The translations under genes and the position numbers were made by a program. Source: an uncultured Rhodospirillaceae bacterium (GTDB taxonomy: Bacteria; Pseudomonadota; Alphaproteobacteria; Micavibrionales; UBA2020). From it: DNA of 64,000 nt. Under the pieces are notes generated by a model. The model worked only from the letters and a program-made list of their open reading frames with translations. It was not told the origin of the DNA and did no database searches. This document shows positions 54,134 to 61,267 of this stretch, one piece after another (positions within the stretch are counted from its first letter, which is position 1; each line of letters begins with the position of its first letter). The stretch lies in assembly GCA_964458415.1 (NCBI GenBank), contig CAYWIT010000008.1, forward strand, positions 1,108-65,107, in the 5' to 3' direction.

Positions 54134-54973
54134 TCAGGCGACGTTCGTCAGAACTTCTTCCAGCTTTTCAGCAGCCTTTTTCTCGTCGATTCTCTCGATG
54201 GCGGCAACTTCACGAGCCAGACGCTCCAGCGCGGCCTGATAAATCTGGCGCTCGCTGTAGGATTGTTCCGACTGGTCGTCTGCCTTGCGAAGATCGCGCA
54301 GAACCTCGGCAATGGCGACGGGGTCTCCTGAGTTGATCTTGGTTTCGTATTCCTGTGCACGACGGCTCCACATAATGCGGCGTGTCTGGGAACGGCCCTG
54401 CAATGTGGCCAGCGCGTCTTTCAGGCGATCCTTGGAAGAAAGCTTGCGGAGACCCGAGGCCTTGACCTTGCTGACGGGGAGCTTGAGACGCATCCGGTCT
54501 TTTTCAAAGCAAATCGTGTAAAGGGTAATTTCCATGCCCGCAATCGTCTGGGTTTCCACGCCTTCAACCAGACCAACGCCATGTGCGGGATAAACAACGA
54601 AATCCCCGGCGACAAAATCAAGTTTTTCGATTTTTTTAACGATCACGGTTTCTTGCACAATAACGGGCGCAGCTTCCTTTTTTTGAACTTTTTCTTTTTT
54701 GATTACAGCGGCTTCCGGTTGTTTTTTCATTTCTACCTTTTTCGGTGCGGCGATAGGCTTTGCAACAGCTTTTGCTACGGACTTCGCTACAGGTTTTGCA
54801 ACAGATTTTGCAACAGGCTTAACCTTCGCCTTTACGACGGGCGCCTTGGCAACGGCTTTTTTGGCGACAACTTTCTTTGCAATAACGGGCGCGGCTTTCT
54901 TCGTTTTTGCGACCGTTTTGACTGCAGCGGGTTTTTTAGCTGCTTTTGCCTTTGTTTTCAATGTCTTTGCCAT
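54134..54973 (-). CDS. carD: CarD/CdnL-family RNA-polymerase-binding regulator with a Lys/Ala-rich (histone-H1-like) N-terminal extension
   Basis: 279 aa. The C-terminal ~165 aa form the CarD_CdnL_TRCF core (GDFVVYPAHGVGLVEGVETQTIAGMEITLY...RRIMWSRRAQEYETKINSGD...). The N-terminal ~110 aa consist of AKKPAA/VAKSVAKP-type repeats. Confidence 0.85.
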   Translation of the reverse strand: MAKTLKTKAKAAKKPAAVKTVAKTKKAAPVIAKKVVAKKAVAKAPVVKAKVKPVAKSVAKPVAKSVAKAVAKPIAAPKKVEMKKQPEAAVIKKEKVQKKEAAPVIVQETVIVKKIEKLDFVAGDFVVYPAHGVGLVEGVETQTIAGMEITLYTICFEKDRMRLKLPVSKVKASGLRKLSSKDRLKDALATLQGRSQTRRIMWSRRAQEYETKINSGDPVAIAEVLRDLRKADDQSEQSYSERQIYQAALERLAREVAAIERIDEKKAAEKLEEVLTNVA

Positions 54974-55215: not shown

Positions 55216-55554
55216 TCAATCCCCTTCACCGGGGTCCGGGCTAAAGAATTTCATTTTGTTCTTCACCTTTTTGAACTCTTCAGCTTCGGGCAGGGCGGGT
55301 TTCTTCCGGGTAATATTCGGCCATTTTCCCATAGAGTATTCACGGTTCAGCTCCAGAAAGGCTTCGCCTTGTGGGTCTGAATCCGCCACGATGGCATCGA
55401 TGGGACATTCCGGAACGCAGACGCCGCAATCAATGCACTCGTCCGGATTGATGACAAGCGTGTTTTCCCCTTCGTAGAAGCAGTCTACCGGGCAGACTTC
55501 AACGCAATCCGTGTATTTACATTTGATGCAGACATCCGTGACGATGTAGGTCAT
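55216..55554 (-). CDS. fdxA: ferredoxin (7Fe, [3Fe-4S][4Fe-4S] FdxA type)
   Basis: 112 aa. [29 protein letters not shown]...[12 protein letters not shown]. Confidence 0.9.
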
Positions 55555-55614: not shown

Positions 55615-56547
55615 CTAGCCCGCGTTAACGATTCTTTGAATCAGCGCTTCTTTTATGGCATCAGCCCTGTCGTTGTCGATCTGGCAGGTTCCGACAGCCT
55701 TGTGGCCGCCGCCGCCGTGTTCCAGCATCAGGCTGCCGACATCCACCTGAGCGGACCTGTTCAGTACGGATTTTCCGACAGCAAAAACCGTATTGACGCC
55801 TTGTTTGCCGGGCATGACATGCATGGAAATGTTTTGTTCGGGGTACATTGCGTAAATTGTAAATCTGTTTGTGACAAAGATTTCCTTTTCATTGCGTAGA
55901 TCAAGGACAAGGAGATTATTGTGAATTTCCGCGCAGGTCTCGATTTGCTTTTTTGCAAGAGGCAGGTGCTTTCTGTACATATGAACGCGTTCGGCGACAT
56001 CAGGGTGATTCAGAATCTCATCCACATTTTTATGTGTGCGCAGAATATCGACGAAATCCATCATTAACTGATAGTTTGAAACGCGGAAATCACGAAACCG
56101 GCCCAGACCGGTACGGTTGTCCATGATGAAGCCAAGCAGGACCCATCCTTGCGGATTCAGGATATCTTCGTGAGATATTTGCGCAGCATCGATTTTATCG
56201 GTCGCGCTCATAAGATCCGCTGTGATATTGGGAAATTTTTCAGCGCCGCCAAAGTGGCGATAGACGACGTGCGCCGCCGAAGGCGCCGTCGGATCGTTGA
56301 TCACATTTGCCGCCTGACCTTTGTTGCGCTCAATTTCGCTGGCGTGGTGGTCAAAAACGATATGCGCTTTCGGGTGATAGGGAAGGTTGGTGATGATGTC
56401 GCGTCCGGTGACTTCAATGGTGCCGTCCTGCATATCCTTGGGGTGGGCATACTTGACCTCATCAATCATGCCGATTTCCCTGAGTAATGCGGCGCAGACA
56501 ATGCCATCCATGTCGCTACGGGTAATAAGACGATATTTCTCCTGCAT
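55615..56547 (-). CDS. DHH-family phosphoesterase-like protein
   Basis: 310 aa. RSDMDGIVCAALL (DHH motif I-like), FDHHASE (DHH) and a C-terminal GGGHKAVGT (DHHA1 GGGH) motif. Confidence 0.7.
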   Translation of the reverse strand: MQEKYRLITRSDMDGIVCAALLREIGMIDEVKYAHPKDMQDGTIEVTGRDIITNLPYHPKAHIVFDHHASEIERNKGQAANVINDPTAPSAAHVVYRHFGGAEKFPNITADLMSATDKIDAAQISHEDILNPQGWVLLGFIMDNRTGLGRFRDFRVSNYQLMMDFVDILRTHKNVDEILNHPDVAERVHMYRKHLPLAKKQIETCAEIHNNLLVLDLRNEKEIFVTNRFTIYAMYPEQNISMHVMPGKQGVNTVFAVGKSVLNRSAQVDVGSLMLEHGGGGHKAVGTCQIDNDRADAIKEALIQRIVNAG

Positions 56548-56705
56548 TATTATCCTTCAAATGTTGCCAAGTTTTCAGGGGATTATAAACTAAATCCAAA
56601 AAATGAAAATACCCTTGGGGCGGAGGAGGCGTGAATAATTTTGAGATATTCATGTTTTCACCATCGTGCCCGACTTGTTGGAAGTCCATGGAGATGCCGC
56701 AATAT

Positions 56706-57071
56706 GTCACCGTTCCCCGCAATTTAGGGGGATACGGCAACCTGTACCTCATGCCACAACAGACAAAGAAGGTCACCGTTCCCCGCAATTTAGGGGGATA
56801 CGGCAACAAGCGCGAAAGAACACAGCTTATCGTGAACGTCACCGTTCCCCGCAATTTAGGGGGATACGGCAACACTATTGGCGATGCATTGACAGAATCA
56901 TCTGTCACCGTTCCCCGCAATTTAGGGGGATACGGCAACGTGCGACATGAACAAGTACGACGCCGAACAGTCACCGTTCCCCGCAATTTAGGGGGATACG
57001 GCAACTTGTCAAACTGCTCATTCCAGTTAGTGATTGTCACCGTTCCCCGCAATTTAGGGGGATACGGCAAC
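56706..57071 (-). CRISPR. CRISPR array: 6 identical 36-nt repeats and 5 spacers of exactly 30 nt
   Basis: The plus-strand repeat is GTCACCGTTCCCCGCAATTTAGGGGGATACGGCAAC. Copies start at 56706, 56772, 56838, 56904, 56970 and 57036, giving a 66-nt period. Spacers lie at 56742..56771, 56808..56837, 56874..56903, 56940..56969 and 57006..57035 and are all unique. The strand assignment (minus, co-directional with the adjacent HEPN gene) is an inference from repeat folding, not certain. Confidence 0.95.
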
Positions 57072-57157
57072 TGGTTCCTTTCAAAGCTTTGTTTCCAAAG
57101 CAGAAAGGCAACCACTCGGACTTACAAAATCCACAAAAGTGAACTAATGCCGATCTA

Positions 57158-58588
57158 TTATGTAGCATTTTTTCCCGCTCGTTGCAAGCCATTGGATTGT
57201 CCGGCGTGTTGCAGTGCCCGCATCCATCCGGCAGCGATTTTGCGGACTGCGCGTCGTCGGTTGACTTCAGTGCCGCTATTTTTCTCCTGTTTTGCCTGCG
57301 CGCGTTTTTCTGCGCTCCAGCGACGAATTTTTTCCGTCTTCGGATGTCCATCGTCAGACGTATGCATGACGGCATGATTTTCGCGGCGCAATAGCCGTTC
57401 GATCTGGTCGCAGAAGGTAGACTTCTGCCCCGTGGGAAGGGAGGCAAGAACTTTGGCGAAAACATCCTCAACTGTCAGGGGGCTCTTGTTATCCTGTGCG
57501 TAAATGCGCCAGAACAACCCGTTATGCGCCAGTGTGTTTCGTATATTGTGCAAATCGGCGTCTTGAATTTTCTCTCCTTTTTTATCCTTCGGCGCGAAAT
57601 CGATATAGTGATGGATGACAGCACCTATGTGCATGGTAAGCATGTAAAGGGGTTCAATGTCGTGCCGAAAGCTGGGTTTTTCCGCATGGTCTGCTGTATA
57701 GATGAGGGCGCGGCTTTTTTTCTGCAGGGGGAGGCCAAGGCATTCGAAAATTGCGCGCAGGTTCTGTGGACCGATAAAGTCATAGCGGCGTTTGAACTGA
57801 AATTCACGATAATCCGTGGGCGATATGCCGAGCGCCCTGTATGACTTGAGCCAGATCGCGGTGTTGTCGGCATCTGTCGCAAGCGCCTTACGGCGTGTTT
57901 TTCCAATCCTCGCGCGTTTTCGTTCCTCCGAAAACATAAGGCGACGGCTCTCGGCGTTTTCCTGCCTGCACCATTCGAAGAGTGTGTGCATGCCGTCAGC
58001 CGCTGCCTGCGCCGTCTTTTCTTTTACGGAGCGGGCTCTCATTTCTAACATGTTGCATATTCCCGGTAAAAGCAGGATGCTAAGCGCTTCGAGCACTTTT
58101 GTATTTTTCTGCGCGTTGAAAGTCTCTCGCTTTCTTTTCCTCTCTGCGTAATGCTCAAGATAATGACGTTTGTCTATCAAGATCTCTATGGCGTCGTTGA
58201 ACTGCTCAAACCGCCAGAAAATACCATGCTGCTGCTTGAAACCATCAGCAAATATTTTTTGCAAGCTTTCGTCCTCTTGCAGTTTCCGCAACAGGGAAAG
58301 GAATCCTTTGTGAAAGATGTCCGTGGTTTTCGTGTGTCGGCACTTCGGGTCAAGAACTGCACTGCGAAAGTGGGCTTTGTTTTTTGGGATGGCCTTTTTG
58401 GCAATACTAAACATTTTTTTGCGGCGGGCCATGGCGCTGCGTGGGAAACCCTGCCAGAACAAAGTTTGCGCATGGGTGCCTGCCAGACGGATAAAGAACA
58501 GCAAGTCCGAGCGGAATACATGATTTTCTTCCAGAGAGGAAAGGTCGATATCTTGCGGTTTCAGGCAATGCGGAACAATTTTTTTCAT
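57158..58588 (-). CDS. candidate miniature single-effector CRISPR RNase: 476-aa basic protein with two HEPN-type R-x4-H motifs (Cas13-like / type VI-like)
   Basis: This is the only ORF between the array and the housekeeping genes. It carries RHYLEH (aa 141-146) and RNTLAH (aa 350-355), both fitting the R[NHQ]xxxH form used by Cas13 HEPN sites. It has several Arg/Lys patches (ERKRKRE, EERKRARIGKTRRK, RRWSAEKRAQAKQEK...NRRRAVRK). The array lies 86 bp downstream on the same strand. The ATG overlaps the stop of the upstream gene (TAATG). No overall family recognised by eye. Confidence 0.65.
   Translation of the reverse strand: MKKIVPHCLKPQDIDLSSLEENHVFRSDLLFFIRLAGTHAQTLFWQGFPRSAMARRKKMFSIAKKAIPKNKAHFRSAVLDPKCRHTKTTDIFHKGFLSLLRKLQEDESLQKIFADGFKQQHGIFWRFEQFNDAIEILIDKRHYLEHYAERKRKRETFNAQKNTKVLEALSILLLPGICNMLEMRARSVKEKTAQAAADGMHTLFEWCRQENAESRRLMFSEERKRARIGKTRRKALATDADNTAIWLKSYRALGISPTDYREFQFKRRYDFIGPQNLRAIFECLGLPLQKKSRALIYTADHAEKPSFRHDIEPLYMLTMHIGAVIHHYIDFAPKDKKGEKIQDADLHNIRNTLAHNGLFWRIYAQDNKSPLTVEDVFAKVLASLPTGQKSTFCDQIERLLRRENHAVMHTSDDGHPKTEKIRRWSAEKRAQAKQEKNSGTEVNRRRAVRKIAAGWMRALQHAGQSNGLQRAGKNAT
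57524..57541 (-). other. HEPN-type motif 2 (R350-N-T-L-A-H355)
   Basis: The complement of 57524..57541 reads CGA AAC ACA CTG GCG CAT. Local context: DLHNIRNTLAHNGLFW. Confidence 0.6.
58151..58168 (-). other. HEPN-type motif 1 (R141-H-Y-L-E-H146)
   Basis: The complement of 58151..58168 reads CGT CAT TAT CTT GAG CAT. Confidence 0.6.
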
Positions 58589-59883
58589 TACAACGTATCG
58601 CGCAGTCTATACCAGAGCATTCCCAGCACAAACAAGGGCTGTTTCAGCAGGTTGCCTCCCGGAAACGGCGCATGTTTAATGCCGGCAAAAACGTCAAACC
58701 GTTCCGCCGTGCCGCTGACGGCTTCGGCAAGGACTTTTCCGAGGATATTGGTGGCGACGACGCCATGTCCGCCAAAGCCGTGGGCAAAATAGACCTGCGG
58801 TGTTATGCGGCCGAGGTGGGGCATGCGGTTGATGGTAAATTCGATGGGCCCACACCAGCAGTGGTCAATACGCGTCATGGCCAGCGCCGGAAAGAGTTCA
58901 ACCATGCGTTTGCGCAAGCGGGTGTCCTCACCGGGGTAATCCTTGCCGCTATAATTGCAGTTACCGCCAAAGAGAATGCGCTTGTCGGCGGACAGCCGGT
59001 AATAATTCATGATAAAATTCGCATCGATCACGGCGATGTCGCGGCGGAAAATATTTTGCGCCAGACGTTCGCCCAGCGGCTCGGTAGCGATCATATGCGC
59101 GGTGGCCGTAATGGATTTTTTCTGCATGACATCAAGTCCGTTAATGCCGATCGCGCCGGCCAGAATAACGAATTTGGCATTCACAAGGCCGTGCGCTGTT
59201 TTGACTCTGGGCGCAGGGCCGCTTGTATCCAGTGCCGTGGCAGGGCAGCCGTCATAAATTTTACAGCCAAGTTTCTGTGCGGCCTGTGCAATGCCCAGCG
59301 CGTAATTCAGCGGGTGGAAATGCCCTGCTTTCATATCCAGCATGCCGCCTGTATATTTCTCGCAATTGATATAGGCTTGTGTTTCTTTTTGGTCGAGCAG
59401 TTGGAAGTCGTTATGGCCGACGGCTTTCCAGTCATTGATTTCACTTTGCAAGGCGCTGATATGGCCTTGGTTCATGGCGGCAGTTAAATGGCCGAATTTC
59501 AGGTCGCATTGAATGTCATGCTCCATGATCCGGCGCAGGATAAGATCAATGCCTTCCAGCGAGATATCCAGCAGGGTTTTGGCTTGTCCGATGCCAAATT
59601 GGCGGATCAGCGTTGCCGTGTCCATGGCAAACCCGCGCTGCAAATGTCCGCCATTCCGGCCCGAAGCGGAAGAGGCAATAGTGCCGCTTTCCAATAATAT
59701 GACGGAATAACCTTTGCGGGAAAGCTCCAATGCAGCGGAAAGTCCTGTAAAACCGCCGCCAATGATGCAAACATCACAGTTGACCTCGCTCCGGAGGGAG
59801 CCTAGAGTCGCGACAAGGCGATTGGTCGTCAGAGCATACCATGGACTTGTGTATTCTTTTACATTTTCATATTTCTTTGGCAT
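58588..59883 (-). CDS. FAD-dependent oxidoreductase (gamma-glutamylputrescine oxidase PuuB-like)
   Basis: Start at the internal ATG (MPKKYENVKEYTSPWYAL...). CDVCIIGGGFTGLSAALEL dinucleotide-binding motif. The overall pattern resembles E. coli PuuB. The longer track ORF (to 60024) would overlap the divergent gene. Confidence 0.8.
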   Translation of the reverse strand: MPKKYENVKEYTSPWYALTTNRLVATLGSLRSEVNCDVCIIGGGFTGLSAALELSRKGYSVILLESGTIASSASGRNGGHLQRGFAMDTATLIRQFGIGQAKTLLDISLEGIDLILRRIMEHDIQCDLKFGHLTAAMNQGHISALQSEINDWKAVGHNDFQLLDQKETQAYINCEKYTGGMLDMKAGHFHPLNYALGIAQAAQKLGCKIYDGCPATALDTSGPAPRVKTAHGLVNAKFVILAGAIGINGLDVMQKKSITATAHMIATEPLGERLAQNIFRRDIAVIDANFIMNYYRLSADKRILFGGNCNYSGKDYPGEDTRLRKRMVELFPALAMTRIDHCWCGPIEFTINRMPHLGRITPQVYFAHGFGGHGVVATNILGKVLAEAVSGTAERFDVFAGIKHAPFPGGNLLKQPLFVLGMLWYRLRDTL

Positions 59884-59917
59884 GATGACGTTTCCCGCAA
59901 ACGGAGTGGAGTTATTC

Positions 59918-61267
59918 ATGGACAAGCTTGAACAGTTTATCCGAGAACACAAGATAACGGAAGTTGAATGCCTTGTCCCTGATATGTCCGGCGTGGCGCG
60001 GGGCAAGATTTTGCCCGCCGACAAGCTATTACGTATTCTGCGGGAACGTGGAATGCCGTTGCCGGAAAGCGTTTTTGTCCAGACGGTGACGGGGGGTTAT
60101 CCCCTTAACGATGCCGATCTGATCTCGCCTACTTTTGGCGATGTTTATATGGTGCCGGATGTCAAAACAGTCCGGCTGGTGCCGTGGTACAAAGAGCCTA
60201 CGGCGCAGATTATTTGCGATGCTTATAACGCCGATGATACGCCGGTAAATATTTCCAGCCGTTATATCCTGAAAAAAATTGTCTTGGAATATGTCAAACT
60301 TGGTTTGACGCCTGTTGTTGCGCCGGAGCTGGAGTTTTATCTCGTGGCGGTCAATACGGATCCCGATTTGCCGTTGCAACCGCCTGTCGGTCGTTCGGGA
60401 CGGCAGGAAAGCGGGCGTCAGGCCTATGGCATTGATGCGGTCAATGAATTTGATCCGATTTTTGAAGATGTCTATGATTATTGCGAATTGCAGAACGTGG
60501 ATATTGACACCTTAAGTCATGAAGCGGGCGCGGCACAGATCGAAGTCAACTTCAATCATGGTGATCCTGTCGAGTTGGCGGATCAGGCTTTTCTGTTCAA
60601 GCGCACGACGCGTGAAGTGGCGATCCGTCACGGTGTTTATGCGACCTTTATGGCGCAGCCGATGCGGACCGAGCCCGGCAGCGCCATGCATATCCACCAG
60701 AGTCTTGTTGATATAAAAACCGGAAAAAATGCCTTTGCGAATGACGATGGCAGCGATACGGAATTATTCCGCCATTATATCGGCGGGTTGCAAAAATATC
60801 TGCCGTTCGCTTTTCCGCTATTTGCGCCGAACGTCAATTCCTATCGCCGTTTCGGGCATAAGGAAACGGATTCTCCTGTCAACGTCGAATGGGGCATCGA
60901 CAATCGCACGGCAGGCCTGCGCGTTCCTGTGGCCAAACCGGAAAACCGCCGCGTGGAAAACCGGTTGCCCGGCGCGGACGGCAATCCTTATCTTTCGATT
61001 GCGGCTACGCTGGCCTGCGGGCTTCTGGGGATCATGGAAAAGGTCGAACCGAGCGAGCAGATTAAAGGCAATGCCTATAAGAAAGGCCATACTTTGCCCT
61101 ATCAGCTGACGGATGCGCTGAAGCTGATGCTGGATTGCAAGCCGTTGCAGGAGGTGCTGGGCCCGCATTTTGTCAAGACGCTGGCGTCGATCAAGGAGAC
61201 GGAGTTCAAGGCCTATAACGCTGTGATCTCTTCATGGGAACGCGAGAATCTGCTGTTGAATGTCTGA
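59918..61267 (+). CDS. glutamine synthetase family protein (gamma-glutamylpolyamine synthetase PuuA-like)
   Basis: Start at the ATG at 59918 (MDKLEQFIREHKITEVECLVPDMSGVARGK), after GGAGTGGAG. GS catalytic motifs (PELEFYL, HEAGAAQIEVNF, GSAMHIHQSL, NSYRRF, NRTAGLRVP, ENRLPGADGNPYL). Confidence 0.8.
   Translation: MDKLEQFIREHKITEVECLVPDMSGVARGKILPADKLLRILRERGMPLPESVFVQTVTGGYPLNDADLISPTFGDVYMVPDVKTVRLVPWYKEPTAQIICDAYNADDTPVNISSRYILKKIVLEYVKLGLTPVVAPELEFYLVAVNTDPDLPLQPPVGRSGRQESGRQAYGIDAVNEFDPIFEDVYDYCELQNVDIDTLSHEAGAAQIEVNFNHGDPVELADQAFLFKRTTREVAIRHGVYATFMAQPMRTEPGSAMHIHQSLVDIKTGKNAFANDDGSDTELFRHYIGGLQKYLPFAFPLFAPNVNSYRRFGHKETDSPVNVEWGIDNRTAGLRVPVAKPENRRVENRLPGADGNPYLSIAATLACGLLGIMEKVEPSEQIKGNAYKKGHTLPYQLTDALKLMLDCKPLQEVLGPHFVKTLASIKETEFKAYNAVISSWERENLLLNV

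Follow-up and report, generated by a model that had tools for sequence, protein, structure and literature searches.

Anatomy of the Cas13e locus

We analysed a 64,000-nt stretch of contig CAYWIT010000008.1 (GenBank assembly GCA_964458415.1) from an uncultured Rhodospirillaceae bacterium, hereafter referred to as the window, and focused on a CRISPR module on its minus strand. The module consists of a gene for a compact Cas13 effector, cas13e (also named cas13an), followed by a leader and a repeat array. It lies between a puuB-like flavin adenine dinucleotide (FAD)-dependent oxidoreductase gene, whose stop codon overlaps the start codon of the effector gene, and a gene for a DHH phosphoesterase (Table 1). 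Comparison loci are denoted by L and homologous proteins by P, each with a number.

Table 1. Features of the module and its surroundings, in window coordinates
Feature	Position	Strand	Basis or remark
puuA-like glutamine-synthetase-family gene	59918..61267	+	Divergent from the puuB-like gene
Divergent intergenic gap, 34 bp	59884..59917	.	Between the puuB-like and puuA-like starts
puuB-like FAD-dependent oxidoreductase gene, DAO family, 431 aa	58588..59883	-	Pfam DAO 6.5e-64
TAATG stop/start overlap, puuB-like/cas13e	58586..58590	-	100% identical in L017 and L018
cas13e (= cas13an) effector gene, 476 aa	57158..58588	-	NCBIfam NF049956
HEPN1 motif R141-x4-H146 (RHYLEH)	58151..58168	-	13-sequence alignment A1
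HEPN2 motif R350-x4-H355 (RNTLAH)	57524..57541	-	Alignment A1
Leader, 86 bp, cas13e stop to first repeat	57072..57157	-	Conserved with L001, L002 and L005
CRISPR array, 6 repeats and 5 spacers	56706..57071	-	Direct reading; Cas13an8 oligos for orientation
Trailer, 85 bp, last module-specific DNA	56621..56705	-	No counterpart in L011 or other Cas13e modules
Native DHH upstream region, unusually diverged between filled and empty alleles	56548..56620	-	Promoter-like site at 56609-56582
DHH/DHHA1 phosphoesterase gene (nanoRNase/pAp-phosphatase-like)	55615..56547	-	Native neighbour of the puuB-like gene
Ferredoxin gene, next co-directional gene	55216..55554	-	Followed by carD and rpoH

The effector matched the NCBIfam profile NF049956 (VI_Cas13e) at 418.8 bits against a cut-off of 175, covering profile positions 1-466 of 467, and its open reading frame (ORF) had no Pfam match. 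A search of ~5.8 billion proteins yielded 13 family members, one of which (P0004) is Cas13an8 (MBW7837953.1, contig JACFMS010000047); the window protein is 61% identical to it and similarly long (476 versus 474 aa), and Cas13an8 and two distant homologs likewise matched NF049956. Its length also falls inside the range of 429-577 aa published for Cas13an proteins (Science 2024; PMC12165695). Judged by its sequence, the effector is thus a member of the published Cas13e/Cas13an family of subtype VI-E, a membership that the original prediction had not recognised and that the profile match and the identity to Cas13an8 make plain. The 13 published sequences do not include the window protein, which makes it a further member of an established family, and the locus represents no new kind of system. 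A look-up of the protein in the contig index gave no hit.

Both HEPN motifs are conserved across the family: in alignment A1 (13 sequences), R141 was invariant and H146 nearly so, and R350, A354 and H355 were all invariant. An AlphaFold model of the effector (predicted local distance difference test 80.8, predicted template modelling score 0.82) was mostly helical. Foldseek found no PDB relative of this model, and the discovery paper reports no PDB structural relative for the Cas13an family either (PMC12165695). The N-terminus MKKIVPHCLKP is common to the effector and its homolog P0002, whose gene follows non-coding DNA, which argues that the overlapping ATG is the true start of the effector.

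The name Cas13e was applied in earlier papers to other compact Cas13 proteins too. In the 2025 classification, Cas13e defines subtype VI-E and is "by far the smallest" Cas13 (PMC12669027). The profile NF049956 is named VI_Cas13e yet described as "type VI-C", where the classification paper says VI-E; this is an inconsistency of labelling and not a biological one.

In the array, six identical repeats of 36 bp alternate with five spacers of 30 bp, and none of 100 shuffled sequences gave any match (0/100). The repeat is predicted to fold into a hairpin (-19.2 kcal/mol, z = -4.7) and is identical to the Cas13an8 repeat at 34 of 36 positions, both differences lying in the loop. The published Cas13an8 spacer-repeat oligos read spacer first, then GTTGCC...GGTGAC (PMC12165695), and this polarity places transcription of the array on the minus strand, co-directional with cas13e. 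The leader shares 80% mean column identity with those of L001, L002 and L005, in which TTGAYA and TrTAAG boxes stand 15-16 nt apart. The repeat at the trailer end of the array ends in GGTGAT rather than GGTGAC in L001 (9587-9622) and L002 (9822-9857), and in L001 a further decayed repeat lies beyond it; the six repeats of the window are all identical. No second array with the same repeat was present in the 64-kb window, the repeat pattern, with N at each of the five loop positions that vary, had no match in JGI metagenomes or IMG/VR, and Rfam returned nothing meaningful on either the window locus or L001. Two ORFs that run across the array (199 aa, 56516-57115, minus strand; 248 aa, 56631-57377, plus strand) were rejected as artefacts of repeat translation, with recurring LPYPPKLRGTVT and VTVPRNLGGYGN peptides, and are not genes.

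On these components, the locus is a complete minimal type VI-E system, comprising cas13e/cas13an, an array of six repeats and, between them, a conserved leader. It is alike in every component to subtype VI-E as captured by NF049956, the smallest Cas13 class, with an effector and an array only. Published Cas13an loci have 36-nt repeats and 30-nt spacers, and cas1/cas2 occurs in none of them (PMC12165695). The likeness to the Cas13an8 locus extends to effector length, both HEPN motifs, repeat and spacer lengths, a leader preceding a downstream array, and the lack of other cas genes in either locus. The two loci differ upstream: cas13an8 has its own 645-bp region facing a divergent gene, whereas the window gene overlaps the stop codon of its host neighbour.

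Presence and absence of the module at one site

The module is absent from L011, a 6-kb metagenome contig whose DHH protein is 99% identical to that of the window and whose flanks are 99.9% identical. The left flank (window 62785-58597; 4189 bp) aligned with L011 throughout with 4 substitutions, and the right flank (56541-54755; 1787 bp) aligned throughout with one 12-bp indel and 5 substitutions. The DNA between the flanks measures 2055 bp in the window and 87 bp in L011, where 72 bp separate the puuB-like gene from the DHH gene downstream. The same empty arrangement recurred in L012 and L013 (DHH protein 86% and 74% identical), where these two genes lie 35 and 12 bp apart with no module between them. 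In the synteny comparison that the original prediction had proposed, the DHH gene directly follows the puuB-like gene in all three contigs. Given that L012 and L013 are empty, the empty state is ancestral, and the absence of the module from L011 despite nearly identical flanks indicates that it varies between strains with nearly identical genomes.

The filled allele was recovered from three data sets and the empty allele from a single one. The left filled junction was reproduced at 100% identity in contigs L017 and L018 from two other sequencing runs, and the right one (last repeat, trailer and DHH gene) at 99.94% in L019; an assembly chimera is ruled out, since these independent contigs contain both junctions. 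The module is thus a recent presence/absence polymorphism at the strain level. Of the earlier description as an old, domesticated insertion or a minimal cassette, the minimal cassette stands, and the old and domesticated part is contradicted by the empty sites in L011, L012 and L013.

The allele pair also delimits the module. Identity with the empty allele ends 8 nt before the cas13e ATG and resumes, imperfectly, 85 bp past the last repeat, so that the L011 counterpart of ~1.97 kb of window DNA is 18 bp long. The differences reach beyond the module itself. Before its stop codon, the puuB-like gene has ACG TTG as its final two codons in the window and TTG CTA in L011, with the same stop position and gene length. 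The 76-bp stretch upstream of DHH is strongly diverged, 53 matches standing against 10 mismatches and 24 gap columns; codon 2 of the DHH gene differs as well. On either side of the module the two alleles have different adjoining sequences, for which reason a simple insertion with target-site duplication and a simple deletion were both ruled out, and the comparison of filled and empty junctions revealed no direct-repeat scar. The end of the puuB-like gene in L009 (ATG TTG TAA) resembles that of the window (ACG TTG TAA), which suggests that the filled allele carries foreign flanks. Such a short diverged patch around the module suggests recombination of a whole allele, and the simplest reading is that the allele was exchanged with a related donor already carrying the module at the same site, rather than inserted by a transposase or integrase.

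Consistent with the original prediction that the module is no part of a mobile island, hallmarks of mobile elements were lacking. None of the 54 ORFs of the window matched a transposase or integrase, no tRNA lay within 25 kb, and the module is not bounded by flanking direct repeats. Its composition breaks only mildly with its surroundings, the GC content at third codon positions being 0.566 in cas13e against 0.632 +/- 0.033 in other genes. Compared with mobile elements or genomic islands, the locus shares the presence/absence polymorphism (empty in L011; filled in the window and L017-L019) but not the hallmark genes.

Other Cas13e loci were likewise set in housekeeping surroundings devoid of mobile-element genes: the L001 module lies between a TPR (cpoB-like) gene and tilS-ftsH, that of L002 beside oxidoreductase genes, and those of L015 and L016 between lepA-abiD and a Vut_1/L28 pair. 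Across four modules from unrelated contexts, nucleotide homology begins at the ATG (to within 12 nt) and extends to the end of the array, which points to a shared unit without a conserved upstream region. In these other loci, 113-645 bp of unrelated DNA precede the effector gene; fusion to a host stop codon was found in the window alone.

Two side observations concern the surroundings of these homologs. A tRNA-like 3' fragment (GGTTCGACTCCCGCCGGGCGCGCCA) lies at 7950-7974 of L001, the locus of the closest homolog, 26 nt upstream of the cas13e ATG. Fragments of tRNA 3' ends are typical of integration-site remnants; ARAGORN and Rfam, run on the 17-kb L001 locus, called no tRNA or tmRNA at the fragment or elsewhere. 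In the Tokpelaia-like loci L015 (5830-6783) and L016 (5833-6783), cas13e is preceded on its own strand, at a distance of ~218 bp, by an AbiD gene (PADLOC AbiD 1e-56; Pfam Abi_2 8.5e-41). According to the discovery paper, the HEPN domains of Cas13an derive from AbiD/F-like proteins (PMC12165695).

Host gene string, predicted expression and immunity

The module interrupts a string of co-directional minus-strand genes (puuB-like, DHH, ferredoxin and carD), bearing out the housekeeping neighbourhood described in the original prediction. In L013 (5988-6933), the DHH gene and then the ferredoxin gene follow closely on the puuB-like gene, the first junction being a 12-bp gap and the second a one-base stop/start overlap; as L013 is free of the module, this tight packing indicates that the native gene string is operon-like even without it. 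The DHH gene product has more than 8000 homologs at 60-99% identity, and the translation shows its DHH and GGGH motifs; the Pfam matches to DHH and DHHA1 fell below threshold. Its gene begins at 56547, and the gap of 158 bp to the array (56548-56705) agrees with the earlier reading. The puuB-like protein matched only the general DAO domain, with no NCBIfam equivalog at its cut-off and the best matches far below. The product of the divergent puuA-like gene matched Pfam Gln-synt_C (3.6e-99), scored 196.8 bits against the NCBIfam gamma-glutamylputrescine synthetase model, under its cut-off of 650, and is 80-82% identical to orthologs in L006-L010. The start codons of the pair, at 59883 (minus strand) and 59918 (plus strand), leave the 34 bp noted previously, a distance also found in the independent gene calls of L011. 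This divergent pairing is compatible with a gamma-glutamyl-amine pathway and does not prove one.

The junction behind the puuB-like gene is variable in other lineages. In L006 (7293-7344), L007 (6553-7320), L008 and L009 the ferredoxin gene directly follows the puuB-like gene and the DHH gene is absent; in L007, a 181-aa ORF without significant Pfam or PADLOC match occupies the junction on the opposite strand. The DHH gene, this ORF and the Cas13e module thus represent three different inserts at one junction in different lineages. Because L006-L009 have the junction without DHH, the DHH gene was considered as an accessory gene of the module. This was ruled out by its presence in the empty loci L011-L013, its more than 8000 conserved homologs and its absence from the other Cas13e loci. 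The 12-bp indel relative to L011 (window 54798-54809) falls in carD and comprises one Lys/Ala/Val/Pro unit of a repetitive N-terminal extension of CarD.

At the left end of the module, the minus strand reads ...CGC GAT ACG TTG TAA TG AAA AAA: the TAA of the puuB-like ORF (58590-58588) and the ATG of the 476-aa ORF (58588-58586) have one base in common. This overlap had been noted before and was confirmed by direct reading and by its reproduction in L017 and L018. The claim that the effector has no Shine-Dalgarno (SD) sequence also held: the best anti-SD pairing of the 22 nt upstream of cas13e was +0.3 kcal/mol, compared with -2.9 to -8.3 kcal/mol for eight neighbouring genes. A consensus scan, which is crude, called no promoter-like or terminator-like site on the minus strand from the puuB-like coding region to cas13e; within 58589-59883 of that strand, no promoter site scored at least 9/12. 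The DHH gene has a promoter-like site of its own (TTTTCA-16-TATAAT, 10/12, 56609-56582), and the scan called no terminator-like site between the array and this gene.

Since the sequence upstream of -8 codes for the host protein and is the same in the empty allele, a promoter serving cas13e must be either that of the puuB-like gene or a fortuitous internal one. Only the 8 nt upstream of the ATG are specific to the module, and this strengthens the case for expression from the host operon. Cas13e would then be transcribed from the puuB-like promoter, the module bringing neither promoter nor ribosome-binding site for the effector, and co-transcription of the two genes appears fairly likely on sequence grounds. 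Termination-reinitiation, in which ribosomes would finish at the puuB-like TAA and restart at the overlapping ATG, is plausible, the chances lying about even. The array would be transcribed in the same direction, either from its leader or by read-through. Earlier, the effector had been described as the distal gene of the puuB-like unit; this remains the most economical view and gains from the empty allele, and the missing SD sequence, offered in its favour, is not specific evidence. The arrangement resembles other operon pairs with overlapping stop and start codons in that the genes are co-directional, TAATG shares a single base and the downstream gene has no SD sequence, but in the window the second gene is a foreign defence gene of recent acquisition rather than a partner that evolved together with the operon, and the coupling is a prediction.

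Regarding function, Cas13an proteins, including Cas13an8, protect Escherichia coli from diverse phages, and their HEPN site serves both target cleavage and pre-CRISPR RNA (pre-crRNA) processing (PMC12165695). By homology with the characterised members, the HEPN site of the window effector would cut the pre-crRNA into spacer-repeat guides, and recognition of target RNA would lead to cis and collateral RNA cleavage, protecting the cell against phage; crRNA-guided RNase activity and HEPN-dependent processing are known only from orthologs that were tested and are expected here by analogy. No cas1, cas2 or cas9 was detected among the 54 ORFs by PADLOC or Pfam. The absence of adaptation genes in cis, as originally predicted, thus holds within the 64-kb window and is the rule in the Cas13an/Cas13e family. 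New spacers, if still acquired, would need a Cas1-Cas2 encoded elsewhere; an earlier proposal for this family is that adaptation works in trans. A similar dependence is that of type VI-B loci on type II-C in Flavobacterium, where likewise no cas1/cas2 adjoins the array (cited in PMC12165695). Strong PADLOC matches to mad3, LmuB, BrxL and DolB traced to SMC and Lon and were rejected as defence genes; a PADLOC dGTPase match was also among the window results, not assigned to an ORF.

Competing explanations and significance

Taken together, we consider it likely that the window carries a minimal VI-E module that was recently acquired, varies between strains and is expressed by read-through from the puuB-like gene with translational coupling, its array being co-directional. 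Several observations weigh against this reading. The closest free-standing homologs also have a weak SD sequence or none (-1.0 to -4.2 kcal/mol), so the missing SD sequence is partly a family trait and poor evidence for coupling, and a fortuitous promoter may lie inside the 3' part of the puuB-like gene. The leader of the window is degenerate at its first box, which reads TTAGTT (57142-57147) as against TTGACA/TTGATA in the three homologs, and the consensus promoter scan did not call the box site in the window. If this box is part of a promoter, the array's own promoter may be weakened here, which makes read-through an alternative to leader-driven transcription. The five spacers matched none of 50,697 phage records, the repeat-proximal 24-mer of each had no match in IMG/VR, and no match with up to 7 mismatches occurred in the window or in any fetched locus. 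Lastly, the sharp 76-bp diverged patch within flanks of 99.9% identity is not fully explained by any simple model, and the polymorphism could reflect either gain here or replacement in L011.

With respect to the history of the site, the view that the module is an old, domesticated insertion long fixed in the lineage, as first proposed, would fit the lack of a strong compositional break and of mobile-element genes and the tight operon fit. It is highly improbable in view of the empty sites in L011, L012 and L013 and of six perfectly identical repeats without decay. A more serious possibility, although an unlikely one, is that the module is ancestral to the species and was lost from the L011 lineage when an empty allele was imported from a relative, the window representing retention. 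The 76-bp patch and the changed terminal codons attest an exchange without giving its direction, and the filled allele comes from three data sets against one for the empty allele, both in keeping with such a loss. A gain would nevertheless be needed somewhere, as the outgroups L012 and L013 are empty, and the L009-like terminal codons of the window suggest that the foreign flanks belong to the filled allele.

Alternatively, cas13e might be translated independently and transcribed from a promoter of its own within the 3' coding portion of the puuB-like gene, TAATG being only a by-product of the landing site. We regard this as somewhat unlikely. In its favour, the closest homologs (L001, L002 and L005) are expressed from unrelated upstream DNA with little or no SD sequence, so the gene evidently can start without coupling, and the promoter scan is a weak test; against it, such a promoter would have had to pre-exist by chance in coding sequence the same as that of the empty allele, and the scan called no site there. 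It is improbable that the cassette is silent, non-functional cargo made up of an orphan array and an unexpressed effector, in spite of the missing SD sequence and promoter, the degenerate leader box, the unmatched spacers and the lack of adaptation genes, because the 476-codon ORF is unbroken and keeps every catalytic residue, the repeats are identical, and the gene sits in a frame-independent overlap right behind a translated gene. Read-through with coupling, as set out above, thus remains the reading we prefer. A bolder and quite doubtful extension of it is that Cas13e modules travel as promoterless cassettes, running from the ATG to the end of the array, and that recombination captures them behind host genes, with the effector here slaved to a gamma-glutamyl-amine catabolic operon. 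If so, the metabolic signal inducing this operon would turn on immunity, and the pair of filled and empty alleles would mark out the unit in which the smallest Cas13 naturally moves.

Cas13e/Cas13an is the smallest known Cas13 and is rare, with 13 proteins among the ~5.8 billion searched, and is of interest for both Cas13 evolution and compact RNA-targeting tools. What the present locus adds, besides a new ortholog 61% identical to Cas13an8, is an unusually tight fusion to a host operon and the exact natural boundaries of a minimal module without a promoter of its own, which the allele pair fixes to the base, from 8 nt before the ATG to 85 bp past the last repeat. The locus thereby provides a handle on points left open by the discovery paper, namely the expression of these minimal modules and their means of spreading in the absence of mobile-element genes.

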